Assembly (NCBI GenBank): GCA_030619825.1
Contig: JAUXAS010000002.1
Coordinates: 3,363-67,362 of the forward strand
Reading direction: 5' to 3'
Length of the DNA stretch: 64,000 bases
Source: Hadesarchaea archaeon
GTDB taxonomy: Archaea > Hadarchaeota > Hadarchaeia > Hadarchaeales > Hadarchaeaceae
Positions 4,985 to 64,000 of this stretch are shown here, piece by piece. Both the position numbers and the translations under genes were made by a program. Each line of letters opens with the position of its first letter. The stretch's first letter is position 1. Below the pieces are notes generated by a model, which worked only from the letters and a program-made list of their open reading frames with translations, ran no database searches and had not been told where the DNA came from.

Positions 4985-5805
4985 TTTCCAAACCTTCGCT
5001 CTCGCCCCTGGTAGGTGCGGATAGCGCGCAGGAATTCGATCTTGTTGAACTCTGGCCAGTTCGCCTCGCAGAAGTATAACTCGCTGTAAGCAGACTGCCA
5101 GAGCAGGAAACCGCTCAGCCGCTCCTCCCCGCTGGTGCGGATGATCAAGTCAGGGTCGGGCAGGCCAGCGGTGTAGAGATGGCTATTTATAATGCTTTCG
5201 TCGACATCGCTCGGCTTGAGCTCGCCCCGCTCGATGCGCTCGCATATTCGCCGGACCGCCTCGGCGAGCTCGGCCCTGCCGCCGTAGCCAACAGCGATGT
5301 TTAGGGTGTATCCATCGTAGCCCTGAGTTGCCTCTTGCGCTTCCTCGATCGCTCCCCTTACCTGCTTGGGTAAACAACTCAGATCGCCTATCGCACGGAC
5401 GCGTATTTTGTATTTATGAATGCGCTCGTCCTTCACCACCTTTTTGAACCTCTCGACAAACAGATCCATGAGCACTTTTAACTCCTCGCTGGAGCGGTTG
5501 AAGTTCTCGGTTGAAAAAGCGTAAATCGTGATGTGCTTGATGCCGAGTCCCTGACACCACCCCAGCACTTCCTCGAGCTTCTTCGCCCCAAGCGAGTGCC
5601 CCTGCAGCTTATCCAGCCCCGCCTTCTGCGCGAAGCGGCGGTTGCCGTCCAGAATTATCGCCACGTGCCGCGGGATGTTCCCCCGCCGCATTACCTCCTC
5701 CAACAACTGCTGCTCGTAGTACTTCGCCGCCATTGCCTGCAGTCTAGCCACGCCAGGTAATTTTGCTATCGGGAGCTTTTCGATAACCAAGCAATCCCGA
5801 AACAA
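4981..5805 (-). CDS. uppS: Undecaprenyl (tritrans,polycis) diphosphate synthase, archaeal cis-prenyltransferase
   Basis: PRHVAIILDGNRRFA, ITIYAFSTENFNR and IIRTSGEERLSGFLLWQSAYSELYF are conserved blocks. The true start may be the internal MAAKYY (5733). Confidence 0.9.
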   Translation of the reverse strand: MFRDCLVIEKLPIAKLPGVARLQAMAAKYYEQQLLEEVMRRGNIPRHVAIILDGNRRFAQKAGLDKLQGHSLGAKKLEEVLGWCQGLGIKHITIYAFSTENFNRSSEELKVLMDLFVERFKKVVKDERIHKYKIRVRAIGDLSCLPKQVRGAIEEAQEATQGYDGYTLNIAVGYGGRAELAEAVRRICERIERGELKPSDVDESIINSHLYTAGLPDPDLIIRTSGEERLSGFLLWQSAYSELYFCEANWPEFNKIEFLRAIRTYQGRERRFGK

Positions 5806-9532: not shown

Positions 9533-9973
9533 ATGGCCAAGTGGCAGGGTAGGTCGCTGAAGAAGTCGAGCGGGGGACGAAAATGGGCCAGTCGGAAGAA
9601 GCGCAGGCGGGAGATGGGGAGTGAGCTCGTCGAAACCAAGCTCGGCCCGACAAAACGAATCGAGCGGCGTGCCCTCGGTGGCAACATAAAAACCAGTTCG
9701 CTCGGTGCCGATATCGCTAACGTCATGGACCTAAAAACAGGAAAAGCAAAAAAATCGAAGATACTCACGGTCGTCGAGAATCCCGCTGACCCACACTTCG
9801 TCCGCAGAAATGTCCTGACGAAGGGGGCGATAATCGAAACCGAACTCGGCCGCGCGCGCGTGACCAACCGACCTGGACAAAGCGGCAGCATCGATGCCGT
9901 GTTGCTCGAGGCCAAACCCGTTGAAGCCGAGAAACCCGCTGAGAAGCCAGCAGTACCCGAAGAAAAGTCATAA
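9533..9973 (+). CDS. rps8e: 30S ribosomal protein S8e
   Basis: MAKWQGRSLKKSSGGRK...RRALGGN.K...NPADPHFVRRNVLTKGAII matches S8e. Confidence 0.9.
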   Translation: MAKWQGRSLKKSSGGRKWASRKKRRREMGSELVETKLGPTKRIERRALGGNIKTSSLGADIANVMDLKTGKAKKSKILTVVENPADPHFVRRNVLTKGAIIETELGRARVTNRPGQSGSIDAVLLEAKPVEAEKPAEKPAVPEEKS

Positions 9974-36456: not shown

Positions 36457-36882
36457 CTAAATCTTCAACCTTTTCAGCAACTTCCACGTTTGGATTATCT
36501 CGGTATCCCCGACCCGCTTCAGGGAAAGAATCCATTTATCGCCGGTGACCAAGTAATCGGCCCCACTCACGGCCGCTGCTGCCAAAATTGGAACATCCGC
36601 CTCATCGCTAATCAGCTTAGCATATCGCTTTTCAGAGCTTTTGTATGCGCTCTTGGATATTTTCTCATGTTTCACCAAGCGCAAAAACAGCGGGAAGAGG
36701 ACAGCGTGTTTTGGAAACTTTCTCTCGAGCACCGCGTTCGCTTCGTCGATTACGTCGGCGCTCAACACCAGCCCTAATTTTCCATCGATGATCGCATCCA
36801 GCAATTTTCTCTCGTTCCCGGCAAAACCCATCCCAGACACTAGGATATTGGTGTCTAAGAAAACCCTCGGCTTCTTGATCAT
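36457..36882 (-). CDS. vapC: PIN-domain toxin (VapC-like)
   Basis: VFLDTNILVS...SDEADVPILAAA...YLVTGDK are PIN acidic motifs. 4-nt overlap with the upstream AbrB gene. Confidence 0.8.
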   Translation of the reverse strand: MIKKPRVFLDTNILVSGMGFAGNERKLLDAIIDGKLGLVLSADVIDEANAVLERKFPKHAVLFPLFLRLVKHEKISKSAYKSSEKRYAKLISDEADVPILAAAAVSGADYLVTGDKWILSLKRVGDTEIIQTWKLLKRLKI

Positions 36883-37130
36883 CTCTTGGTCCGCCTGATT
36901 TCTTGGATGGCCCGATTCAATTCTCTCCTCGTGAGACCGATCTCCTTTGCGGCACGCTGAAACACGTTCAGGATTTCCTTGGGGTCGACACCGATCCGCT
37001 TCATCAAAATTAGACCCCCTGCTTCAGTGACGTAGAGGTAATCGTCCTCGCTGATGTTCAGGTCATCCCGTATTCCCGCGGGTAGGGTGAGCTGGCCTTT
37101 CGAGGTGACTTTTACCACAGCCTCCACCAT
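36879..37130 (-). CDS. vapB: AbrB/SpoVT-type antitoxin (VapB-like)
   Basis: VKVTSKGQLTLPAGIRDDLNISEDDYLYVTEAGGLILMK is a canonical AbrB swapped-hairpin motif. Confidence 0.8.
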   Translation of the reverse strand: MVEAVVKVTSKGQLTLPAGIRDDLNISEDDYLYVTEAGGLILMKRIGVDPKEILNVFQRAAKEIGLTRRELNRAIQEIRRTKR

Positions 37131-37290
37131 CTTACCACCGTTTAAAATGTAAGAATTCCTTACTTATAAAACTTTGGACCTTGGGGCAACCCACTTGATG
37201 GAGCCAGTTTAATGGCTCAAATTGATAAACCATAAATTGAAAGAATACAAACCAGATAACTGGCTATTACCGGGGCGATTCCCAAGAGGC

Positions 37291-37446
37291 ATATAACTAC
37301 AAGAACTGCCCAGGCGATTTTTGAGCAGGATTGTAAAAATGGTGGAATTCTGAAAGACGTGAGTATTCACTCATTAAGACATAGTTTCGCCACGCATCTT
37401 TTAGAAAATGGAGTGGATTTGAGGTATATCCAAGAGTTATTGGGGA
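37291..37446 (+). pseudogene. C-terminal fragment of a tyrosine recombinase/integrase
   Basis: ...[47 protein letters not shown] is the box II region. The catalytic Tyr segment is missing and no N-terminal part is present. Confidence 0.6.
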
Positions 37447-37478
37447 AAACGTTATATTCAATCACTCTGGCGTGCTCA

Positions 37479-38246
37479 TCATTTTTTTCTTAGAAGAACC
37501 ATGTTATCAGAAAATTTTTTAGCTTTTTCTAGAGGTTTGTCTAAATGCCAAATATTACAATTTCCCTTCCACCACCCTAAGAATTCAAATTTTCCATTTA
37601 ACTTTACAAGTGTTTTAAATTCTTGTGGGTAAATAAATTTTAAATCTCTTTTATGAACAAATTTCATTTCCTTTCCATAATCATTTACTTCATGTGTTAA
37701 TATTTCGGTCCCCATTTGGGTTATTGGATTTTTATAAATCCATTCAAAAGTTGTTTTTACTTTTATTCCTCCTTTTTCTCTTGTCCAGGATTGTTTTCCG
37801 GATTTTGAATTTATGCCATGATTTTGTATAAAATAAAGTCCGCCTTTATTCAGAGATTTTGCAACAGAGTCAAGATGTGAAAGAAACTCTTCATTAGATT
37901 GCACATCTAAGGAGCCCATCATTATAAAAGCAAAATCTGCTTTCTTTTTTAACCTGAAATTTGTTAAATCCGCCCTAATGGTTTCTATTTTTACTCCTTC
38001 TTCCTTCGCTTTCTTTTTCAGATACCCCAACATTCTAAAATTTAAATCTAGTCCAATAGCTTCATATCCTCTTTTTGCAATTTCTCGAAGTTGTAAACTT
38101 GGCCCACATGCTATATCTAAAAATCTTTTAACTTTTCTTTTGCTGAATTTCTTAATTATTTTTTCAAAATTGTCAACTTGCTGTTTGGCGTTTACAAAAA
38201 TAAATGCTATATCATAGTATTCTGGTTTATCATACGGACTTATCAT
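37479..38246 (-). CDS. Class I SAM-dependent methyltransferase (in an AT-rich islet)
   Basis: [28 protein letters not shown] is SAM motif I. Composition is strikingly AT-rich relative to the neighbours. Confidence 0.75.
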
Positions 38247-38510
38247 GATATAAAATAATCCTCAATTACTATTTAAAAGATTTGAAAAAATTGCGTGCCC
38301 TCGTGACTTCTCCGTCGTTCAGCTTACGCCTGCGCTACTCGACCTTCGCTATCGCTCAGGGAATATAACACGGGCTATACGGCTCGCTAACGCTCTGCCC
38401 AACTCGTTTCTAACGAAACGACTTCGTATAGCCTGAATACGTTATACGCAATTCCGCCCCGAAGCCTTATGAAAAAAGAAATTTAAGATCAAATGGAAAG
38501 GTAACTAAAA

Positions 38511-38984
38511 ATGTCGAACGAAAATGAATGGAATTTAGTTGCTCCCTGCGGGCTTTATTGTAAAGAATGCACAGCTTTTCTTAATGAGAAATGTGGGGGT
38601 TGCAGGTCTAATGAGGGCTTAAGCAAAGAGTATAGAAAATATTGCGAAATCTATCATTGTTCAAGCAGTAAAAACTTAAAGATATGTTTAGATTGTAAGG
38701 AATTCCCCTGTAGATTCTTTGATTTCTTTAAGACTGAAAAATTAGAGGAAAGCTCTTGGTTTTTAGACATCTGGAGCAACATGAAGCAAATTAAGGAAGT
38801 AGGCCTAACAAATTTCCTGAGGAAGAAAATAGATTGGTTAAGGAAGAGAAAAGAATGTGCTAAGAAAAAAGGGATTAAATATTGCAATGAATGTAAGCAA
38901 TGGCCATGTGAATTTTTGAAAAGACCTGTCCTTGTTCCAGCAAATTTGAAAGAATTTAAAGAATTCATGAGGAAAGGTAGGTAA
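38511..38984 (+). CDS. Cys-rich DUF3795-like protein
   Basis: APCGLYCKECTAF...CGGCRS...C.IYHC...CLDCKEFPC and a second YCNECKQWPC cluster. Confidence 0.6.
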   Translation: MSNENEWNLVAPCGLYCKECTAFLNEKCGGCRSNEGLSKEYRKYCEIYHCSSSKNLKICLDCKEFPCRFFDFFKTEKLEESSWFLDIWSNMKQIKEVGLTNFLRKKIDWLRKRKECAKKKGIKYCNECKQWPCEFLKRPVLVPANLKEFKEFMRKGR

Positions 38985-39134
38985 AAATGAGAGCGATCAG
39001 TAGCTTTGGACGAGACTCTTCCGTTGTTCGCCCCTATCGGGAGCGTATAACAGTGGCTAAAAGGCTTCGCTACGCTTCGCCCAAATTTGCTACGCAAACT
39101 TCTTTTACCCGCAAAACGTTAGGAGTATTTTTGC

Positions 39135-46150: not shown

Positions 46151-48880
<2,730 letters not shown>

Positions 48881-48954
48881 CTACGTGTTTTGATTCCAAA
48901 CTGTGTCACGAAAAGTGCAAGGGCAAGTCTCCATAAGTGGTATAAATCTCGAAG

Positions 48955-49437
48955 ATGTCATTCATAGGGGAAGAGCCTATGGTGCGATTATTTGGAAAAA
49001 AGAAAGAGGCACCGAAGGCTGTGGCGGCATGCACCTGCCCGTTGTGCAAGTTTATGGATTTGCTCGAGCCCGAACTAAAGGGTAAGCCGTATGAAGAATC
49101 CCTGCTGAAGTTCATCATCTCCCCAACAAACGTCGGCGATGAATCTCCCAAGGAGATCGAAAAAAGGGCTAAGGATGCTGTGAAAAAAGGGAAAATCGAG
49201 GAAGCAAGGATTTCCTACCTTACGCTGATTGGCAATGCCCTTGCAAAAGAAAATGTGTCAGCAAAGGATGTTAGGGGATACCTAGAGGAATACAAATTGT
49301 TCTTAAAAAAGCATAAGCTCCCTGCTACAGAGTATTATCCATCAGTGGAAGATTGCTCAAATGTAATGAATCACGCTGATGAAATTATAGGTGTAGTCAG
49401 AAAGGCTTATCAAGAAGTGAAAAGTCCCGAGAAATGA
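48955..49437 (+). CDS. Hypothetical protein
   Basis: 160-aa ORF, CxC..C near the N-terminus, helical Lys/Glu-rich remainder. Lower GC than the core genes. Confidence 0.4.
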   Translation: MSFIGEEPMVRLFGKKKEAPKAVAACTCPLCKFMDLLEPELKGKPYEESLLKFIISPTNVGDESPKEIEKRAKDAVKKGKIEEARISYLTLIGNALAKENVSAKDVRGYLEEYKLFLKKHKLPATEYYPSVEDCSNVMNHADEIIGVVRKAYQEVKSPEK

Positions 49438-49489
49438 ATACGTCCCGTTCTTACTAGCCATCAAAAATGCGCCGGTCATTTTTAACCTA

Positions 49490-49545
49490 TGGTGCGGTAT
49501 TAAGGGTTTGAACCCAGATTTGTACCCTCCAGAATCTTTCCGTAC
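49490..49545 (-). repeat. Decayed copy (e) of the tRNA-Leu 3' half (att-like)
   Basis: Plus strand TGGTGCGGTATTAAGGGTTTGAACCCAGATTTGTACCCTCCAGAATC, compared with TGGTGCGGGGGAGGGGATTCGAACCCCCGAACCCCTACGGGACCAGACCCTGAATC at the tRNA gene. Same orientation. Confidence 0.6.
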
Positions 49546-49592
49546 AACAGATAAATACCTCCTTCCCTCTAACTTTGTAGTGAGGGTGAAGC

Positions 49593-50447
49593 ATGTCCAT
49601 AAACGTTGTAAAAGCCGATGGGCACGTGGAGGGATTTCAACCAGAAAAGATAACACGAACCTTGCTGAAAGCTGGGGCAAGTAGGGAAGTTTCTGAGCGG
49701 ATTATCAAAGAAATTAAGACTAGGGTCTATGATGGTATCACCACCAAGAAAATCTTGAAGCTGGTAAAGTCCCTGCTCAGAAAGGAAGAGGCGAGAGCGG
49801 CGATGCGCTACGATCTCAAGGGGGCGATGATGCGCCTTGGTCCAGCAGGCTTCCCCTTTGAAACTTTCGTGGCTAATGTCTTAGAGCACTACGGGTATAA
49901 GACGAGGTTGAGAAGTATCCTTCAAGGCAGGTGCGTAAAACATGAAGTCGACATCATCGCTGAGGAAGCTAGCGAAGAAAGAATCAAAAGATACCTCATC
50001 GAATGCAAGTATCGTAATACCTCAGGCACCTTTATCGATCTCAAAGATGCTCTTTACACGTATGCGCGTTTTTTGGACCTAAACGAGGCAAGTGAGTTGG
50101 GTAAGGGAACAAAGTTCGACGGGGTTTGGCTTGCCTGCAACACCCGGGCCTCTTATGCTGCAAGACGCTATGCTGACTGCAAGGGGATGAGGTTACTATC
50201 CTGGCTGCACCCCAAAGGTCAAGGTTTAGAGCGGCTTGTGGAGGAAAAGAAGTTATATCCAGTGACGATCCTGCCCTCGGTCGACAGAAAGACCTTGGAA
50301 AACCTGTCCAGAGCCGGTTTAATGCTCGTCAAGGACCTAATAATCCGTGATTTGAACACCCTTCGAGAAAAATCAGGGGTGAGCAAGGAGAAACTTAGGA
50401 GGATAATAAAGGAAGCTAAGGACTTGATGTCTGAAGCAGCCAGTTGA
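49593..50447 (+). CDS. ATP-cone domain fused to a PD-(D/E)xK (Mrr-like) nuclease core and a C-terminal helix-hairpin-helix
   Basis: VVKADGHVEGFQPEKITRTLLKAG...TKKILKLV is an ATP-cone. HEVDIIAEE...YLIECKYRN is D...ExK. LSRAGLMLVKDLI...L..KSGVSKEKLRRI is HhH-like. Confidence 0.65.
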   Translation: MSINVVKADGHVEGFQPEKITRTLLKAGASREVSERIIKEIKTRVYDGITTKKILKLVKSLLRKEEARAAMRYDLKGAMMRLGPAGFPFETFVANVLEHYGYKTRLRSILQGRCVKHEVDIIAEEASEERIKRYLIECKYRNTSGTFIDLKDALYTYARFLDLNEASELGKGTKFDGVWLACNTRASYAARRYADCKGMRLLSWLHPKGQGLERLVEEKKLYPVTILPSVDRKTLENLSRAGLMLVKDLIIRDLNTLREKSGVSKEKLRRIIKEAKDLMSEAAS

Positions 50448-50691
50448 GGGTTCTGAAGATTTTTTTGAGAGGGCCCCGAACGACCGAGCCTGTGAAACCC
50501 TTCACACGATTCGACTCCCGATCGCGCGCAAAGGGCTTTTTTATGGAGTGCGAGCGTCATGGGGAGAACTGTTTTCCTCGAGAGAGTGCCAATTTGTCAA
50601 CTCTCTATCCCTCCTCCAAGCTAAAGGAGGAAGACTGCTACAAGACTTTCGGCAAATCTTAACGATACCCCCTTTTTTACTGTTTCCACTT

Positions 50692-50745
50692 TGGTGCGGG
50701 GGAGTGGATTTAAGCACCAATTTACTGGTAAAAATCCTGCAAAGA
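50692..50745 (-). repeat. Decayed copy (d) of the tRNA-Leu 3' half (att-like)
   Basis: TGGTGCGGGGGAGTGGATTTAAGCACCAATTTACTGGTAAAAATCCTG. The first 13 nt are identical to the tRNA 3' end and the rest is AT-shifted. Confidence 0.65.
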
Positions 50746-50915
50746 TGATTTAATCGATCACTGTAATAAACTAAACTATTTGAATGAGCGAGGCCGAGAA
50801 TTTTGTTTATCCACGCACGTTGTTGTTTAGACCTCTTCTCAGCTCCACGCCCACGTTATAGACATCCTTGAGAAACTGACTGTGTGAGCAATAGAGATCG
50901 GGGGATAAAACTACC

Positions 50916-52817
50916 TTAAAACGCCAGTCTTTGAAAGATTTTAGGCCCAAGAGTTGAAATGATTTCTACGCAGGTAGCGAGGGTGAACTTAATCATGTTC
51001 AGTGTCTCGCGTATATCGCCGACAGTTAATGGTTTAAAGACGTGGTACATATAATTCCGAACAGAACCTTTTATCAATTTGAAAGGATAATTATTGCTAC
51101 CCTTCAATTGATCGAAATCGAAATTGAGGTCAAAATTTATTGTTGCTTTGTCTTGTTTTCCGGATATGATTTTTATATATTCTACGGTGTTTCTTGTGGT
51201 TTCCATGATGTAACTGGTAAGCGGTCTGTTTTTGTATCTTATAGTTAATTGGATTGTTTGTGGACCCAATATGGCAAGGAATCTTGTCATATCTACGACT
51301 TGATGCATTCTTATTTTCCTTGTGCATTCTTCAACGCGGGGATCTGCCATTGATTCTATAAAGACTTTAAACTGAGTAGCCATATTTTTGGAAGATACTT
51401 GTTGAGAAAAGCCTGCTTTAGCCAAGAATACCAACTGAACGATTCTGTCCATTATAAACTTAGACAGCGACGTTTTTCTAGCGTCTCTTTTCTGAGTGAC
51501 TGCAAGCCAGTCAAAGAAGGTGTCCGGTGTCCAAAACTTTCCTATACAGTAAGTTCTCAGTTCCTCAATTTGTTGTTTGCTTATTTTCGGTGATTTAAAT
51601 ACAGAATTATTTTCATCGTATTTGGTCCAATCGCGTTCGAAGATTAAACTCTCTCTTTCTAAAGACTCATAGAATTCGGTCCCGGGAAATGGTGTTGCGA
51701 TACCGAACGCCGCGCTCATCAAGCCTATTTTCTTAGCGTATGTTGGAAATTGCTTTATCTCTTCTTCGCTCTGATCTGGTAAACTTATTACGAAAGTGCC
51801 TGCAGCGACGCCACCGGAATCTCGAATTACCTGTATGGCCTTTTTTTGCATTTCAGTGTTTATTCCTTTGTGCGTTATATTTAGATCTTTTAAATTCGGA
51901 CTTTCGATTCCCATACAAAAATGAATAATGTTATTGTCACACATTTTTTTAACGACTTCAGGGCGTCTAGCCATTGAATCTACCCGAACCATGGCATGAA
52001 ATACTATGTCAAAATTTAATTCGCTTAATAAATCGCAAAAACGGTCAACTCTCTTGGCATCACCCATAAAATTAGGGTCTCCTATGAGGATACATAGAGG
52101 TTTCCCTTTGTGTATCCCATTGTATATTTGATCGATTTCTTCTATTACGTTTTCCGGAGAACGATAACGTTGGCGACTTCTGCTCATACTCGGTTCGCAG
52201 CAAAAAGTGCAACGCCCCCAACACCCACGAGACGTGTGAATCTCATCTACCTCCCTATCCCTTATAAGAGGACTAGTGTATTTGTGTCGTCTAAGGTGTC
52301 GTGCAGGGAAGGGAAGCGAACCCAGGTCTCCAATCAATGGACGATCGGGATTATGAATCACCTTATTGTTCTCTTTGTAAGAAATACCTAGAACACCCTC
52401 AGGAGAACCCCTTTGGACCAGTTCCTTCATCGTTAATTCCCCTTCACCACGGACTACCATATCAACTTGTTTATGTGAAAGCAATTCATCTGGAATAGCA
52501 GTCGGGTGATAGCCCCCCAACACTGTTACAATCCCCCTCTTTTTGGCAATCGAAGCGATACGCAAACCACTTTTATGTTCGGTTGCTGACATTGAGATTC
52601 CCACTAAATCGGGACGAAATAAATCTAGGAAATACAGAAACGAATGGCGTTTTTCGTGTGACATGTCAAGTACATTTACCTCATCAACGATATCTTCAAT
52701 CGACGCTGCGACATATTCTAAGCCTATTGGAATCAAAGCCAACGCAAACCCTAATCCCGTTCTTCCTGCTGGTTTCACCAATAAAATTCTTCTAAAAGCC
52801 ATTCTTATCATATCCAA
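50916..52817 (-). CDS. B12-binding domain radical SAM protein with a long C-terminal extension
   Basis: B12-binding region LVGISMSATEHKSGLRIASIAKKRGIVTVLGGYHPT and radical SAM cluster SRGCWGRCTFCCEP. The gene is AT-rich. Confidence 0.85.
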   Translation of the reverse strand: MDMIRMAFRRILLVKPAGRTGLGFALALIPIGLEYVAASIEDIVDEVNVLDMSHEKRHSFLYFLDLFRPDLVGISMSATEHKSGLRIASIAKKRGIVTVLGGYHPTAIPDELLSHKQVDMVVRGEGELTMKELVQRGSPEGVLGISYKENNKVIHNPDRPLIGDLGSLPFPARHLRRHKYTSPLIRDREVDEIHTSRGCWGRCTFCCEPSMSRSRQRYRSPENVIEEIDQIYNGIHKGKPLCILIGDPNFMGDAKRVDRFCDLLSELNFDIVFHAMVRVDSMARRPEVVKKMCDNNIIHFCMGIESPNLKDLNITHKGINTEMQKKAIQVIRDSGGVAAGTFVISLPDQSEEEIKQFPTYAKKIGLMSAAFGIATPFPGTEFYESLERESLIFERDWTKYDENNSVFKSPKISKQQIEELRTYCIGKFWTPDTFFDWLAVTQKRDARKTSLSKFIMDRIVQLVFLAKAGFSQQVSSKNMATQFKVFIESMADPRVEECTRKIRMHQVVDMTRFLAILGPQTIQLTIRYKNRPLTSYIMETTRNTVEYIKIISGKQDKATINFDLNFDFDQLKGSNNYPFKLIKGSVRNYMYHVFKPLTVGDIRETLNMIKFTLATCVEIISTLGPKIFQRLAF

Positions 52818-52892
52818 TAATTGTGTTCCACCATGTATTTCAATTGTCTATAATAGCTTTCACGATTTCAGAACACACTATGAATTAATACT

Positions 52893-53037
52893 GTACTTGC
52901 AAATCCCGGATCGCTACGTCAACGCCATCTGCGGCCGCGTTCCAGCGAGCGTCCTAGCGCGGCACTACACGGACTACTCGTTCGAAAGACTAAGGAAATC
53001 TGTGAAAAGGCTAATCTGGGGGTGTTGGATGGCTAAA
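52893..53037 (+). pseudogene. C-terminal fragment of an archaeal tyrosine integrase, with a frameshift
   Basis: IPDRYVNAICGRVPASVLARHYTDYSFERLRK, then after a +1 shift ICEKANLGVLDG-stop. Only about the last 45 codons are present. The fragment is GC-rich inside AT-rich flanks. Confidence 0.6.
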
Positions 53038-53346
53038 GTCAAAATGCGGCAAATCAAATCACCAAAAATATGAAAATTGAACTCGCGCTTTTTGAGATAG
53101 CAAGTGGGGATCTTGAAGCTGCAAGGGACTTGAAAATAGTGCAGAAAGAGGATATAAAATACTGAAAAAATTCCGAGAATTCTTTAGAAAATTGAAGTTG
53201 AGGACCAAACTGTGCGGACAAATGTATGTACACGCCGCTACCGCAAGCGCATAAATTTGACCCTTCCCGCCCGATTTGTGGCAACAGCGCGTGAAAAAAA
53301 TACCTTTGTCCCGTTTCTGCGAAATGGCGATTGATGAACATTTGAA

Positions 53347-53386
53347 GTGCGGGGGGATAGGTTTAAGCTACCGTTTAAATCTACCG
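53347..53386 (-). repeat. Decayed copy (c) of the tRNA-Leu 3' half
   Basis: GTGCGGGGGGATAGGTTTAAGCTACCGTTTAAATCTACCG. Confidence 0.55.
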
Positions 53387-53444
53387 AAATGAAATTTTTA
53401 TGCCTAAAAACTGCCTAAATCTTGCTCCATTGGCTATTGAAGAG

Positions 53445-53487
53445 TGGTGCGGGGGAAGAGATACCGACTACCGTTTAATTCTACCGT
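53445..53487 (-). repeat. Decayed copy (b) of the tRNA-Leu 3' half
   Basis: TGGTGCGGGGGAAGAGATACCGACTACCGTTTAATTCTACCG. Confidence 0.6.
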
Positions 53488-53529
53488 ATTTAAATGGCAA
53501 TGTTTGCGCGACCGGCTTTTGAGTTTTAT

Positions 53530-53572
53530 CCTGTGGTGCGGAGGCAGTGCTTGTGGTTTAAAATTATTTTAT
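53530..53572 (-). repeat. Short copy (a) of the tRNA-Leu 3' end plus flank
   Basis: CCTGTGGTGCGG is identical to 55438-55449 (includes 4 nt beyond the tRNA 3' end), followed by ..GTGGTTTAAAA. Confidence 0.45.
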
Positions 53573-53585
53573 CCTCGTCTATCTT

Positions 53586-55175
53586 CTACTCCCAAGCGAG
53601 CATGTCCTCAGAATGCGATTCTTTGATGGACTCCAGCAATATCCTCTTCATTTTCTTCTTCGTGTGGTAGTCGTAAACGACCTTAACCTTCTCAAGCGTG
53701 AAAGGGTTCAGACCCGTCCAGTACATACACGATGAGACCGTCATGGGTGTGGGCGTGAAAAGCTGGAAATGCTCTATGTTCCGCAGCCGCGCTAACTTTT
53801 CACCCAACAATTTAACCTGTCCCTCATCGTCGCCAGGATGGCCTATCATGATGTAGTACCTCAGTGTCTGCTTCTTACCCTTGTTCAAGGAGTTGAAGAG
53901 ATCCACGAACTTGTCGAACCTCGAGTTGTCCTTGTTCATGAGCCTCAGGACCTCGCCCGAGAAGTGCTCCGGGGCTATCTTCAGAGTGCCCGAGATGTGG
54001 TGCTCTGATAACTCCTTTATGTACTCCTCGCTGTCCAGCGCCAGATCGTACCTTATGCCGCTCCTAACGAAAATCTTCTTCACGCCAGGAATCGCCCTAG
54101 CCTTCCTTAACAACGATATCAACCTCCTGTGGCTCCTGTCCAGATCGGTGCATCGCCAGCAACTTTCGCCGCACCTCTTCTCACAGTCCATGCCATACAT
54201 GTTCGCCGATGGGCCGCCGAAGTCGTCTATGTAGCCCTTAAAATCCGGATGCTTCGTCAGGCCCTTTATCTCCTTTAGTATGTTTGCCTCAGACCTCGAG
54301 ATTATCTCGTCACCCTGATGGAGCGCGATGGAGCAGAAATTGCACCCGCCTATGCACCCCCGGTGGGTGACGACGGAGAACTTGGCCATCTTCAACGGCG
54401 AGTGCGGGTGCAGCTTCCTCGTGTAGCCCAGGGAATATATCCAATCCAAGTCCTCGGTTGTGTAATCCGGGTATCTATATTGCAACACGTAGTTGTTTTT
54501 GTACTCCTGGGCCTGGTTCTTGTAGTTCGAGAAGGCCACCTGCATCTGGCAGAACTTTACCTTGTCCTCTTTCACCTCTTTGAAAGACGGCAGCATCCCG
54601 AAATTGGCGTCGACCGTCCGGGATAGGATGCACGTGCCCCGTATTCCCCGCAGGTCCTTCCTGTCCCTCAATCTGTCGGCAATCTCGATGGCCTGCTTCT
54701 CGCCGTTACCGTACACCAGGATGTCGGCCCTCGAGTCGAGAAGGATGCTGCACCTGACGTTGTTGTCCCAGTAATCGTAGTGCGCGAACCGCCTCAGGGA
54801 GGCCTCTATGCCGCCTATGACGATCGTGCTCGACTTGAAATGCCGCTTTACCCCGTTGCAGTATACGATCACGGCCTTGTCCGGCATCTTCGTGACGGAG
54901 CTGTGCCTGTCGCCGACCCGCTTCTTCTTAAGCGGCGTGTAGTTGTTCACCATGCTGTCCACGGAACCCGAGGTGACGCAGAAGCAGAGCTTCGGCGCGC
55001 CGAGCCTGGTGAAGTCCTCCTCGGTCTCGGGCTGCTCGATTATCCCCACCTTGTAACCCTTGGCGTCTAGGACCCGGGCTATGACTCCCGCGGGTGAGAA
55101 GGGGTGGTCGTCGTAGTAGTCCGCCGTGAGGAGCACTATGTCGAAACCCGCCCCAGTTTTGGCTATCATCGTCAT
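53586..55175 (-). CDS. YgiQ-family radical SAM protein (UPF0313)
   Basis: N-terminal FDIVLLTADYYDDHPFSPAGVIARVL, cluster HRGCIGGCNFCSI and the C-terminal YgiQ pattern. Confidence 0.85.
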   Translation of the reverse strand: MTMIAKTGAGFDIVLLTADYYDDHPFSPAGVIARVLDAKGYKVGIIEQPETEEDFTRLGAPKLCFCVTSGSVDSMVNNYTPLKKKRVGDRHSSVTKMPDKAVIVYCNGVKRHFKSSTIVIGGIEASLRRFAHYDYWDNNVRCSILLDSRADILVYGNGEKQAIEIADRLRDRKDLRGIRGTCILSRTVDANFGMLPSFKEVKEDKVKFCQMQVAFSNYKNQAQEYKNNYVLQYRYPDYTTEDLDWIYSLGYTRKLHPHSPLKMAKFSVVTHRGCIGGCNFCSIALHQGDEIISRSEANILKEIKGLTKHPDFKGYIDDFGGPSANMYGMDCEKRCGESCWRCTDLDRSHRRLISLLRKARAIPGVKKIFVRSGIRYDLALDSEEYIKELSEHHISGTLKIAPEHFSGEVLRLMNKDNSRFDKFVDLFNSLNKGKKQTLRYYIMIGHPGDDEGQVKLLGEKLARLRNIEHFQLFTPTPMTVSSCMYWTGLNPFTLEKVKVVYDYHTKKKMKRILLESIKESHSEDMLAWE

Positions 55176-55441
55176 CCTCAGCTTATAGTATGCTTTGGCT
55201 CAAATAATCTCAGTCGGGAAAGGGGTTTGGACCACTGAACAAGCATGTTGTTATATCACGTATCAAGAAAGCTAGCTTTGGTGCCATGCAGAAGCTGAGC
55301 CTAGAAAAATTGCTTTAGATTACTCTCACCCAGGGCATTTTCTGAAAATGAAATATTGGCAGTGCTGCCTGTTTCTCAGCCTAGCCGACACAGTTTCTGC
55401 TAAGGGATGATGGTTTGGGAGGGTATCTCAAAATAGTCCTG

Positions 55442-55529
55442 TGGTGCGGGGGAGGGGATTCGAACCCCCGAACCCCTACGGGACCAGACCCTGAATCTGG
55501 CACCTTTGACCTGACTTGGCTACCCCCGC
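55442..55529 (-). tRNA. tRNA-Leu (anticodon CAG), class II with long variable arm, CCA encoded
   Basis: GCGGGGGTAGCCAAGTCAGGTCAAAGGTGCCAGATTCAGGGTCTGGTCCCGTAGGGGTTCGGGGGTTCGAATCCCCTCCCCCGCACCA. 7-bp acceptor stem, anticodon stem CCAGA/TCTGG with loop TTCAGGG, T-loop TTCGAAT. Confidence 0.9.
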
Positions 55530-55613
55530 GGCTAAAACTTCCCCACCGAGCGGCTTTAATTTTTCGAGAGCAAGGTATATGAAACCAGGAAACAATCAAA
55601 ATTTGGGAACGAT

Positions 55614-56792
55614 ATGCCTTTCAACATAGATATAGTGACGTGGATATTCATCATGATCATTTTCTTCACCATCTCCATCTTCCTCACCCCTCGCATGATA
55701 GGGCTCCAAGCACGCATGGGGCTTGGGCAGCTGCGCAAGTCGGTCCGCGAGCTCGAGGGCTTGGCGAAGGAGAGCAGAAGGGCCGCGCTCCGGGCGATAA
55801 CGAAGCACGGCAAACCCAAGCGTGATGTCGAGCGGGAGTTCGACAATTTCTTGGAATTTTTCGCCATAGCGCCGGTTAGCGAGGATCCGGTGGGGGTGCT
55901 TCGCAGGATGGAGCATGTGTTAGATGTGCGAAAGAAGCGGTTCGAGGGCGTCGTCGCGCGCTTGGCTCCAAACGCCGAGCCCGAAGCCGCCGCCAACTTG
56001 GAGATGACCATCGAGGGGGCAATGGCGAGCTACACCCTCTATCGCCTGGTGCGCCACTTCACGTTGCTGGCCGAGAAGACGAAGAGCTACCAACTCGTCA
56101 TGCTCCTCCAGATGCAGCTACCCTTCCTGAAGGAATATGCGAAAGCGTTCGTGGATGCGACGAAGGCGTTCGTTGCCGGAAAACCCATAGGTGACGGGGT
56201 CGGGGCGATGACGGCAACCAAGCTCATCGGGGATGCACGCTGGGAGGAACCCATCGAAGGTACCATCTACGCTGAGACGAAGTTCGACGGGCGGAAGCTC
56301 CTTATCGTCAAGGCGAAAGGGCCCGGGGGGAGGGTCGGCAAACCCGGCGAGCTGATCAAACGCTTGGTCGGGCGAAGCAAGATAAACCGAATCATCATGA
56401 TCGATGCCGCCCTGAAGCTCGAGGGAGACACGAGTGGGCAGGTGATCGAGGGCGTCGGGGCTGCGATAGGCGGGCCCCCCACGGAGAAGTACAAGATCGA
56501 GGAGATCTCGGTGAAGCGCAAGGTGCCGCTGGACGCCATCGTGATCAAGGAGTCGTTCAAGGAGGCGATAAGGCCCCTCAACAAGCGCCTCGCCCGCGCG
56601 GCCGAAGTGGCTGCGGAGCGGGTGAAGCAGGCGGTGCAGGAGCGGACGAAGCCGGGCGATGTAGTAATCGTCGCGGGCATAGGGAACACGATAGGGATAG
56701 GGCAGAGCACCGAGGAGCTGCCCCAGGAATTCCCGGCGGCACCCGAGAAGAGGAAGAGCGAAATCGAGTCAGATCTCCTACCCTTCCGTTAA
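55614..56792 (+). CDS. DUF1512 family membrane-anchored protein
   Basis: N-terminal TM WIFIMIIFFTISIFL. Conserved archaeal pattern ...FFAIAPVSEDPVGVLRRMEHVLD...GPGGRVGKPGE...IGGPPTEKY. Confidence 0.7.
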   Translation: MPFNIDIVTWIFIMIIFFTISIFLTPRMIGLQARMGLGQLRKSVRELEGLAKESRRAALRAITKHGKPKRDVEREFDNFLEFFAIAPVSEDPVGVLRRMEHVLDVRKKRFEGVVARLAPNAEPEAAANLEMTIEGAMASYTLYRLVRHFTLLAEKTKSYQLVMLLQMQLPFLKEYAKAFVDATKAFVAGKPIGDGVGAMTATKLIGDARWEEPIEGTIYAETKFDGRKLLIVKAKGPGGRVGKPGELIKRLVGRSKINRIIMIDAALKLEGDTSGQVIEGVGAAIGGPPTEKYKIEEISVKRKVPLDAIVIKESFKEAIRPLNKRLARAAEVAAERVKQAVQERTKPGDVVIVAGIGNTIGIGQSTEELPQEFPAAPEKRKSEIESDLLPFR

Positions 56793-62746: not shown

Positions 62747-62825
62747 CTTCAAAAGTGTGAATCCTTCATAGGTTGTTAAATGACGGTAACGTAGAAAATA
62801 AACAGGGGCCGAGTAGGTGGCTTTG

Positions 62826-63758
62826 ATGGATATCGAAGATATAGCAAGGGCCGCACAGCTCGCGTCCGCGTTGGAGGTTAGCGGGTACCCAAAGCCGGGA
62901 AATGTTCACAGAACTGCGGATCTCAAGGGAATGACGTTCGAGCATTTTATAGCGAGCTCCATCGCGATAGGCCCCGTTCTGCTCGATGTGGCCAAGAAAG
63001 GGTTCAGGGCTGGAAAGGGAGAGATCAAAACGGTGGATATTGGAGTTGGAGGAGCAATAAAAAGCGCGATTGGAAACACAATGAAATGGCAAAGAGATGG
63101 GAACACAAATCTGGGCATCGTGTTGCTCCTAACGCCGCTTGCGGCAGCAGCAGGAATGACGCTGGCCAAGGAAGGTAAAATCCAAATGAAAAAACTTAGG
63201 ACAAACCTCTCATGTGTCCTGAAATCCACGACCCCTGAGGATGCGCTAAACGTCTACGATGCAATCTTGATTGCGAACCCGGAAGGTCTTGGGAAAGTGG
63301 ATGAACTCGATTTAAAGAATGAAGCATCGAAGAAGAAGATAAAAGAGGAACGAATCTCGCTCTATGAGATAATGGCTATCAGCTCAGGGTGGGACAACAT
63401 ATCCAAAGAATGGGTCACAGATATGCAGATAACTTTTGAGTTCGGTTATCCGCTCGTGAGAAAATTGTACGGGAGAACTAAAAATATGAATACGACGACC
63501 GTCCAGAGCTTTCTTGAGATACTCTCAAAATATCCCGATACCTACGTGCGAAGAATACATGGCAAAAAAATCGCGAAGAAGGTCTCGGAGAAGGCGAGAG
63601 CCATCATCGAGAAAGGAGGGATGTTAACAAGTGCAGGGAGAGTCCTCATCAAAAAATTTGACGAGGAGCTGAGGAAAAAAAGCATAAATCCAGGAACAGC
63701 AGCTGACCTTACATCTTCTTCTCTAATGCTGGCAATCCTCGATGGGTTGAGGCCTTGA
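62826..63758 (+). CDS. Triphosphoribosyl-dephospho-CoA synthase (CitG/MdcB) family protein
   Basis: ALEVSGYPKPGNVHR, NTNLGIVLLLTPLAAAAG and PGTAADLTSSSL fit the CitG family. Confidence 0.8.
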   Translation: MDIEDIARAAQLASALEVSGYPKPGNVHRTADLKGMTFEHFIASSIAIGPVLLDVAKKGFRAGKGEIKTVDIGVGGAIKSAIGNTMKWQRDGNTNLGIVLLLTPLAAAAGMTLAKEGKIQMKKLRTNLSCVLKSTTPEDALNVYDAILIANPEGLGKVDELDLKNEASKKKIKEERISLYEIMAISSGWDNISKEWVTDMQITFEFGYPLVRKLYGRTKNMNTTTVQSFLEILSKYPDTYVRRIHGKKIAKKVSEKARAIIEKGGMLTSAGRVLIKKFDEELRKKSINPGTAADLTSSSLMLAILDGLRP

Positions 63759-63759
63759 A

Positions 63760-64000
63760 ATGAAGATGCAAGTTATGTCCTCCTTAAAGAAAATAGGACT
63801 GACAAAGCAATCTCCGGCAGAAATCGTTCTGACCACATTCTCGCCTGATAAAAAGCCCCACGCATCAGTCATGGGTATCAGAGCAATGGGAGGATCAAGG
63901 GTGATGCTAAGGATTTTCACCAACACTAGAACCTTTCGGAATATCTTTCAATCCCGGGCCGCGGTTATAAACATCGTGAAGGATGTGAATCTGCTGGCAT
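63760..64000 (+). CDS. DUF447 (FMN-binding split-barrel-like) protein, 5' part, truncated by the window end
   Basis: ATG lies 1 nt after the CitG-like stop. EIVLTTFSPDKKPHASVMGIRA...LRIFTNTRTFRNI fits DUF447. Open to the window edge. Confidence 0.55.
   Translation, partial: MKMQVMSSLKKIGLTKQSPAEIVLTTFSPDKKPHASVMGIRAMGGSRVMLRIFTNTRTFRNIFQSRAAVINIVKDVNLLA

Follow-up and report, generated by a model that had tools for sequence, protein, structure and literature searches.

A tRNA-Leu(CAG) gene as the probable target of serial integration by a family of integrative elements in Hadarchaeota

Cis-mobilisable elements (CIMEs), known alongside the streptococcal integrative and conjugative elements (ICEs), have flanking attachment (att) sites and lack an integrase; they accrete in tandem at tRNA genes or other att sites and could leave the chromosome along with an autonomous newcomer or through its action. 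Genomic islands that sit in tandem at a tRNA gene (tDNA islands, Islander-type) have been described (PMC4383910), and tandem integration and gene capture are known in archaea (PMC8371274, where "gene capture in archaeal chromosomes" is cited to She et al. 2001). In type I archaeal integrases the element attachment site (attP) lies inside the integrase gene (int), antiparallel to the target tRNA, and no tandem arrays were seen by Badel et al. for their suicidal integrases (PMC7253208). Archaeal integrons and clusters of attC sites lacking an integron integrase (CALIN) have been surveyed by Ghaly et al. 2022 (PMC9668308), with Hadarchaeota among the phyla for which attC arrays are reported. Hadarchaeota are mentioned in surveys of archaeal integrons and of proviruses, and no description of elements such as those considered here was found in the literature searched. 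The present analysis concerns a stretch of 64,000 nucleotides (nt) from contig JAUXAS010000002.1 of a Hadesarchaea archaeon, hereafter referred to as the window, in which the 3' end of a tRNA-Leu(CAG) gene recurs five times beside the gene itself.

The 3' end of this gene is probably (roughly 0.8 by our estimate) the chromosomal attachment site (attB) of a Hadarchaeal family of integrative elements, the segments now found beside it having been stacked by serial insertion. Such a locus would be a case of active gene capture aimed at a tRNA gene in Hadarchaeota, a phylum of the subsurface without cultivated members, with population evidence at the level of individual breakpoints.

The tRNA-Leu(CAG) gene and the copies of its 3' end

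The tRNA-Leu(CAG) gene is intact and single, lies on the minus strand at 55442-55529 (ARAGORN and Rfam; RF00005, 52.5 bits), adjoins the DUF1512 and EF-2 genes and is regarded as the live attachment site. The DUF1512 protein retrieves 25 contigs of Hadarchaeota (Hadesarchaea) metagenome-assembled genomes (MAGs) at 65-97% identity and the window can thus be assigned to a Hadarchaeon. Written on the plus strand, the 3' end of the tRNA reads TGGTGCGGGGGAGGGGATTCGAACCCCC..., of which 55442-55452 (TGGTGCGGGGG) is the recombination core. All five copies of the core that had been described in the initial annotation were recovered at the same positions, on the plus strand and in the same orientation: 49490 (TGGTGCGGtat...), 50692 (TGGTGCGGGGGAG...), 53347 (GTGCGGGGGG, preceded by AA in place of TG), 53445 (TGGTGCGGGGGAA...) and 53534 (TGGTGCGGAGG). 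The last of these (53534-53544) also has its 5-nt 3' flank in common with the tRNA, so that core and flank together (53530-53542) form a 13-nt exact direct repeat, TCCTGTGGTGCGG, of 55438-55450.

The 8-mer TGGTGCGG occurs ten times in the window against 2.07 expected, a count reached in 0 of 100 shuffles, and five of the ten occurrences fall on one strand inside 6 kb; the 10-mer GGTGCGGGGG, with at most one mismatch, occurs 17 times against 5.3 expected, again matched in 0 of 100 shuffles. Alignment to the tRNA, which had been suggested as a check, bore out some of the copies only. In an ungapped comparison over 30 nt the copies at 50692 and 53445 match the tRNA 3' end at 22 of 30 positions each, a maximum attained in 3 of 200 simulations, and those at 49490 (18/30), 53347 (scored at 53345; 17/30) and 53534 (15/30) are individually non-significant beyond their exact seeds; the reality of these three therefore rests on position, strand and the comparative data given below. 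Strict local alignment to the tRNA recovered seeds of 8-19 nt only, and Rfam found no tRNA-like fold in the copies, its sole match being the intact gene.

An 11-nt stretch at 48975-48985, CCTATGGTGCG, at the start of orf160 (MVRLFGKK...), is identical to 49486-49496 and may be a sixth, older copy of the core. One relative, L003, differs at this spot, its protein reading ...EPMTRFRLFGKK where that of the window reads ...EEPMVRLFGKK. The tRNA-Leu gene adjoining DUF1512 in four other relatives (L006, L007, L012 and L023, at about 9807-9900 or 5155-5270) has a different anticodon-arm region (GATACGGCCCTGAACCGTACG...), is missed by ARAGORN and is probably intron-containing or otherwise atypical.

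Gain and loss of segments in related genomes

Segments come and go at the core copies. Those of the window carry an ATP-cone/Mrr-like nuclease gene (segment 49543-50691, gene 49593-50447, plus strand), a B12-binding radical S-adenosylmethionine (SAM) gene (module 50801-52875, gene 50916-52817, minus strand; Pfam) and a gene of the YgiQ family of radical SAM proteins (53586-55175, minus strand). Comparison with related genomes showed individual segments to be missing exactly at the copies. L003, with flanking DNA about 88% identical in nucleotides and a DUF1512 protein 86% identical in amino acids, has none of the three segments; its order is agmatinase, PPDK, orf160, a copy of the 49490 type, 43 nt, tRNA, DUF1512 and EF2, and its homology to the window ends at 49542. 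The ATP-cone segment is also missing in L043, where the flank is 97.7% identical and the B12 island has a different left neighbour, orf160 being missing as well.

In L002 and L001 (both about 98% identical to the window), L004 (flank 88%) and L008 (flank 76%) the B12 island abuts the tRNA gene directly, through a junction that reads ...CATTTGAA, then GTGCGGGGG, then AGGGGATTCG, with no encoded CCA. By blastn, L002 aligns to window positions 48880-53355 and then to 55444-55620, the two blocks overlapping by the 9-nt GTGCGGGGG, and the other three show the same pattern. Window positions 53356-55443 (2,088 bp) therefore constitute one indel with its crossover in this 9-mer. It is read as the newest insertion and comprises two att units of about 90-100 nt, a third core copy, the YgiQ gene and a stub of a NOG1-type GTPase gene. 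Comparison with the same four genomes also indicates that the last inserted segment supplied the window tRNA with its encoded CCA and with its 3' flank, ...AATAGTCCTG.

Further arrangements were found in other close relatives. L050 and L053 are arranged as the window, YgiQ included. L049 and L047, two parts of one contig whose DUF1512 protein is 99% identical, have the window arrangement and, in addition, another unit of the 53347 type (two such units flank YgiQ, 2,097 nt apart), a 50692-like copy and a 2.1-kb ABC-transporter segment. The last 46 nt of the tRNA gene in L047 carry a different, compensated T-arm: L047 3140-3227 differs from window 55442-55529 in its T-stem (GGGGG/CCCCT against GCGGG/CCCGT), the flanks are 99% identical and ARAGORN still calls a tRNA. 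These 46 nt equal the 5' end of an integrase gene of the P0285 type, found intact in L042; L047 is a live case in which element DNA has taken the place of a tRNA 3' half.

The YgiQ gene (Pfam Radical_SAM_N, 2.5e-82; NCBIfam TIGR03904, 582 bits) has its closest homologues in Hadarchaeota at 84-91% identity; no record of the exact protein of the window was found. Divergent from it, at 55238-55318 on the plus strand, lie the promoter region and the first ten codons of a NOG1-type GTPase gene (MQKLSLEKLL, then a stop), a region 87% identical to L009 7695-7770. The divergent YgiQ/NOG1 pair is intact in L040 and L041, and the window retains only the intergenic region and the ten GTPase codons. Since the NOG1 gene is truncated, the segment can be taken as a piece of another Hadarchaeal chromosome; compositionally native (GC 0.55; GC at third codon positions, GC3, 0.80, like core genes), it looks like second-hand Hadarchaeal chromosome and not like foreign DNA. 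Its unit is bounded on the left by the core copy at 53534. In L037, a Logan contig of 2,151 nt, the YgiQ unit is 99% identical and the sequence differs beyond both cores, being unrelated to the left of TGCGGAGG and consisting of a unit of the 53347 type to the right of ...AATAGTCCTG and TGGTGCGGGGG. The unrelated left sequence marks the 53534 core as a recombination junction, and the YgiQ unit is thus core-bounded and present in at least two contexts. A circle of this unit would be expected to join ...AATAGTCCTG to TGGTGCGGAGGCAGTGCTTG (circular or tandem example, AATAGTCCTG joined to TGGTGCGGAGGCAGTGC), and a circle of the whole 2,088 bp would be expected to run from ...AATAGTCCTGTG through GTGCGGGGG into GATAGGTTTAAGC.

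The B12 island occurs at the same tRNA in L004, L008 and other carriers. In L004 it is 98.3% identical in nucleotides (2,092 nt compared), where the flank is 88.2% identical, and in L008 the final 172 nt of the island are 98.8% identical beside a flank of 75.7%; judged by these identities, the island has spread horizontally. The module at 50801-52875 is 93.7% identical in nucleotides to L034, where it stands in a non-mobile context (UbiA, TBP, thermosome) with a GC content of 0.43, and the named homologues of the radical SAM protein are mostly from Bathyarchaeia or Thermoproteota. As the homologues in L034-L036 occupy ordinary chromosomal neighbourhoods without an integrase, the gene is cargo and not a conserved part of the element.

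Arms, att units and the integrase family

The core copies at 49490, 50692, 53347 and 53445 are each followed by an arm. At 49490-49542 the core TGGTGCGG is followed by an arm with the T-arm-like sequence GGGTTTGAACCC; this is the oldest clear copy, about 50 nt of which are kept in L003, L006 and L007 before the sequences diverge, and the flank CATTTTTAACCTA precedes both this copy and the intact integrase gene of L042. The copy at 50691-50753, with core TGGTGCGGGGGAG and its own type of arm, forms the left end of the B12 island and reads as a 5' stub of an integrase, LVRGSGFKHQFTGKNPAKMI, ended by a stop. At 53347-53444 lies an att unit of about 100 nt, with core GTGCGGGGG and arm GATAGGTTTAAGCTACCGTTTAAATCTACCG..., bordered on the left by the right end of the B12 island, and it is followed at 53445-53533 by an 89-nt unit (core TGGTGCGGGGG plus arm), a diverged paralogue with 76% identity over 49 nt. 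All of these lie on the plus strand.

The arms fall into families that are conserved elsewhere. The 49490 type recurs in L003, L006, L007 and L045, the 50692 type in L019, L042, L043 and L046, and the 53347-type unit in 11 metagenome loci, with many different left flanks and sometimes in tandem. In the units of about 100 nt both the left arm and the right end are conserved, and the DNA that they flank ranges from nothing to the 9.2-kb nucleoside-uptake operon of L052. Units inside one array are more alike than units on different contigs, a pattern suggestive of duplication on the spot or of concerted evolution. In L052 (3480-3700) and L045 (7342-7560) two tandem units of the 53347 type are followed by a copy of the 49490 type. 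Folding of the units as single-stranded attC-like sites was considered and rejected, the z-scores of units and arms on both strands ranging from -1.3 to +1.3 (units, +0.4 to +1.3).

Every copy in the window opens in the frame of an integrase start: 50692 as LVRGSGFKHQFTGK... and 53347 as VRGDRFKLPFKST..., each ending in a stop, 53445 as VVRGKRYRLPFNST..., and 49490 as MVRY followed by a stop, its counterpart in L003 reading MVRYWGFEPRFVPS.... The arms translate to peptides of the MVRGxGF(E/K)P... type, which align with integrase N-termini. The likely explanation is found in the intact int gene of L042 (protein P0285), which begins ctATGGTGCGGGGGACGGGATTTGAACCCGCGAACCCCTACGGGACCAG and has its start at the CCA end of a tRNA-Leu-like attP of 46 nt; attP thus lies inside the int reading frame, antiparallel to the target tRNA, and the window arms share this frame and this orientation. 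Of 38 full-length relatives, about half start with M..G.GFEP-type peptides, the antisense translation of a tRNA T-arm (GGA TTC GAA CCC encodes G F E P), and the first 17 residues of P0285 are 76% identical, over 17 amino acids, to the antisense translation of the window tRNA. The conservation of the arm families elsewhere, the attP/int overlap in L042 and the integrase-like translations together make it probable that the arms are element-borne attP and integrase 5' sequence and not chromosomal copies mutated in place, their identity as integrase 5' remnants being deduced from sequence.

The other end of an integrase is also present in the window. A pseudogene stub at 52864-53030 (plus strand) holds the last 45-55 codons or so, with a frameshift near 52983 and the catalytic tyrosine region (GRVPASVLARHYTDY); by tblastn only about the last 45 integrase codons survive, frameshifted. 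The 69-amino-acid translation of 52864-53070 matches the integrase family phrog_5127 (2.6e-4) and, weakly, PF16795. An exhaustive HMMER search with the stub gave 152 hits at E<=0.001 among 1.84 billion proteins; most of the matches listed correspond to the last 35 or so residues of tyrosine recombinases of about 290 amino acids, or to short pieces of the same C-terminus; the motif is ...GVPDRYIDAFCGRVPxSVLARHYTDYSPE.... In the full-length proteins that were tested, Phage_integrase (PF00589), Phage_integr_3 (PF16795) and SAM-like N-terminal domains score above threshold. A KxxR box can be discerned by eye in P0251, P0252 and P0257, and the window stub keeps a possible HDFR and the ...ARHYTDY region. 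By these resemblances the remnant belongs to the SSV-like family of archaeal tyrosine integrases. Among the best 150 cluster representatives (P0241-P0390), 109 are shorter than 260 amino acids and 84 shorter than 150; C-terminal stubs of this family thus appear to be very common in metagenomes, and some of them may be cuts at contig ends. A search of all open reading frames (ORFs) of 33 related loci with the stub (phmmer) found no second integrase, and translation from every core across all loci yielded one intact int only, that of L042. A word-indexed homologue search with a 63-amino-acid stub returned nothing, and IMG/VR, searched with the 50692-type arm, the B12 radical SAM protein and the integrase profile, returned nothing or relatives of only 26-27% identity.

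The gene content attributed to the segments in the initial annotation, including the integrase C-terminal fragment, was confirmed by Pfam, NCBIfam, phrog_5127 and HMMER, and its HEPN-like and RHH-like ORF debris found no Pfam family match even at E<=10. The described AT-richness was borne out for the ATP-cone (GC 0.48) and B12 segments (0.41; gene 0.40) against about 0.58 for the core genome, and not for YgiQ. The protein encoded at 49593-50447 combines ATP-cone, Mrr_cat and AF1548-like_C domains (Pfam, NCBIfam), an unusual combination of an ATP-cone, an Mrr-like nuclease and an AF1548-like C-terminal HhH; a 47% identical homologue adjoins YgiQ in L024, and a small ATP-cone ORF adjoins NOG1/YgiQ in L040. 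Between PPDK and the first copy lies orf160 (48955-49437, plus strand, GC 0.44), which is also present in the otherwise empty L003 and has no family match in library scans of the Pfam/NCBIfam type; as an N-terminal remnant of the integrase it was rejected (hhalign probability 2.6%). Elsewhere in the window, an AT-rich islet at 37100-39100 (and 36457-37130) stands out sharply, with GC 0.35-0.36 against about 0.58 and no tRNA near; it holds a methyltransferase-like ORF of 255 amino acids (37479-38246, minus strand) and a Cys-rich ORF of 157 amino acids (38511-38984, plus strand), and an apparent toxin-antitoxin pair of PIN/AbrB type, judged from the sequences, lies beside it. Towards the right end of the window (62750-64000) GC drops to 0.44-0.50, which may mark another foreign segment.

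Proposed events, alternatives and relation to known systems

The proposed elements would encode an SSV-like integrase of about 290-300 amino acids, antisense to a tRNA-like attP, with a reading frame starting on the CCA end (xTG GTG CGG GGG ..., that is, M V R G x G F E P). An element with int and attP would recombine at the tRNA 3' end, and the tRNA would be rebuilt from element DNA, as is shown by the swapped T-arm of L047 and by the CCA and flank, in which the window differs from L002. The old 3' end would be displaced to the far side of the insert and fused to the arm of the element, that is, to the 5' end of the integrase gene. Repetition at the live tRNA would stack segments, the newest adjoining the tRNA, and with the deletion or overwriting of the integrase genes the cargo would remain between boundaries made of core and arm and solo att units of about 100 nt. 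The Bathyarchaeia-like B12 module lies between the 5' stub (50691) and the 3' stub (52864), both on the same strand, and these may be the parts of one split gene. Segments without an integrase would presumably have been moved in trans by an integrase encoded elsewhere.

Several observations weigh against this account. The positions of the crossover seem to vary by event, lying in the acceptor stem for YgiQ and beyond the T-arm for L047. Neither the window nor the loci of its close relatives contain an intact integrase, so that catalysis by the family can be argued only indirectly. Copies of the 53347 type differ by a frameshifting T/TT indel, which makes their arms non-coding at present, and these may not have served as integrase codons at any time. 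The ATP-cone segment has its left boundary at +53 of the 49490 copy and not at the core, and the 43-nt flank of L003 is missing from the window, which shows that this event was not a simple insertion into a site like that of L003; no single order of events could be reconstructed that explains this boundary or the L047 array. Presence and absence among strains could, moreover, spread by homologous recombination and not by an integrase, and parsimony is the ground for reading an insertion in the window and not a deletion in L002.

An unlikely alternative is that the window arrangement is ancestral, genomes without YgiQ having arisen when the DNA from the 53347 core to the tRNA core was deleted and the variants having then spread by homologous recombination between strains, with no recent integrase activity. 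The native composition of YgiQ (GC3 0.80), the ATP-cone homologue that adjoins YgiQ near the tRNA-Leu of L024 and the direct repeats of 9-13 nt or about 100 nt, which could support a deletion, are consistent with it. The same junction between island and tRNA is, however, found in three lineages (L002/L001, L004 and L008) whose flanks are 76-98% identical to the window, which favours the state without YgiQ as the primary product of island integration, and the NOG1 stub shows the YgiQ segment to be a truncated copy of another chromosomal region. A different origin of the repeats themselves had been put forward in the initial annotation, where the five copies were 3' halves that had once belonged to the chromosomal tRNA, had been pushed out by one insertion after another and had decayed in place towards A/T. 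Their order and orientation fit that description, outer copies match the tRNA less (49490 at 18/30 against 50692 at 22/30), and the in-frame stop of the window 49490 copy, which L003 lacks, indicates that some decay in place occurs. The 53347 arm nevertheless differs from the tRNA at most positions and yet separates genomes that are 98-99% identical, so that its extension must have arrived with the incoming DNA, having had no time to decay; the arm families conserved across genomes and contexts contradict decay for 53347, 50692 and 49490, and similarity does not fall monotonically with distance, the copy nearest the tRNA (53534) being the worst at 15/30. Decay in place is thus a very improbable source of the extensions, and this part of the annotation had to be given up, while the hotspot that it proposed, formed by serial insertion with older copies pushed outwards, is upheld by the relatives that lack segments at the copies and by the tyrosine-integrase remnant. 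Chance matches, or relics of a tandem duplication of the tRNA gene, would account for the three of five copies that are individually non-significant over 30 nt, and are scarcely credible in view of the seed counts reached in 0 of 100 shuffles, the restriction of the copies to one strand and to the 3' part of the tRNA, and the lack of a tRNA-like fold by Rfam; their coincidence with indel boundaries in relatives is by itself a refutation.

It is possible, if doubtful, that the locus works as a capture platform analogous to an integron, in which the segments that lack an integrase (roughly 1-2.6 kb and at most 9 kb long, with one or a few genes) are the mobile units, bounded by the tRNA-3'-end core and a conserved arm of about 45 nt derived from the integrase 5' end, the units of about 100 nt are empty cassettes, and an SSV-like integrase encoded elsewhere excises circles and re-inserts them at the tRNA in trans. 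Ordinary chromosomal genes, such as YgiQ with its NOG1 stub, would then shuttle between lineages. Every segment seen consists of cargo only and carries no mobility genes: the ATP-cone nuclease, the B12 radical SAM gene, YgiQ, the ABC transporter of L047, a HAD hydrolase in L042, the nucleoside-uptake operon of L052 and a probable P-type ATPase in L006 (named by sequence, without a family library). The recent 2,088-bp insertion came without an integrase and the B12 island spread with a dead one, the YgiQ unit stands in two contexts with boundaries at cores, and the paired units of L049 and L047 and the likeness of units within one array point the same way. On the other side, the units have no attC-like single-strand hairpin, the gene orientations are mixed, there is neither an integrase of the IntI type nor any integrase beside the site, no circular junction was directly observed, and ordinary decay of elements combined with homologous recombination between strains can yield the same pictures. 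For recent movements of integrase-less segments, mobilisation in trans of a CIME-like or integron-analogous kind is plausible, and spread by homologous recombination is plausible too.

With serial integration as the preferred reading, the locus can be compared with the known systems. It resembles tDNA islands in its intact tRNA at one end and same-orientation displaced 3' fragments at the island ends, and likewise in a tyrosine-integrase gene or remnant, foreign composition, content that varies between strains, the newest island adjoining the tRNA and trapping after loss of the integrase. In relatives that lack the islands the breakpoints fall at the repeats, except on the left side of the ATP-cone segment, and the integrase is represented only by a frameshifted C-terminal stub of about 50 codons and short putative 5' stubs. 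Unlike tDNA islands, the segments are very small, of one or two genes, and none has an intact integrase; the native-like YgiQ segment with its NOG1 stub, the solo att units, sometimes in tandem, and the Hadarchaeotal host are further differences. With CIMEs the locus has in common att sites on both sides of segments that lack integrase and transfer genes (the YgiQ unit, the B12 island with its dead int, the ABC segment of L047). CIMEs, however, are bacterial and linked to conjugation, whereas no autonomous partner was seen at the same locus here and mobilisation is argued from the same segment in different contexts and hosts. As in integrons and CALIN, cargo units are separated by short recombination sites at one fixed position and integrase-less arrays are frequent; here the site is a tRNA 3' end plus arm and not a folded attC, the integrase is SSV-like and not IntI, and the genes are not co-oriented nor the cassettes promoterless; neither an IntI-type integrase with attI beside the array nor short co-oriented ORFs were found.

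The integrase itself agrees with the SSV-type (type I, "suicidal") integrases of SSV1, pTN3 and pT26-2 (PMC7253208, PMC8371274) in that attP within the int ORF equals the 3' part of the tRNA, int being antiparallel to it; several full-length relatives have, as read by eye, the KxxR box of the SSV1-type consensus R...KxxR...Y and pass the Phage_integr_3 threshold. It differs in that attP and int overlap from codon 1 to about codon 16, with the start codon at the CCA end; the ORF can therefore come through integration without being divided into int(N) and int(C) at opposite ends of the element. The gene is whole in L042, and the 5' and 3' stubs of the window lie on the same side and strand inside one segment with inserted cargo between them, which is not the split left by a suicidal integrase. 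Tandem arrays, not seen for the suicidal integrases of Badel et al., are common here. Repeats beside a tRNA gene that look like decayed tRNA copies can be element-borne attP arms together with integrase start codons, and to take them for mutated chromosomal copies is a common error of reading; an integrase of the P0285 type with its att sequences could be tested in vitro or may serve as a tool for integration in archaea. One site admits both cargo from another phylum, the Bathyarchaeia-like B12 radical SAM gene, and chromosomal genes from the same phylum; it is a known kind of system, a tRNA integration hotspot, in a new host phylum, Hadarchaeota.

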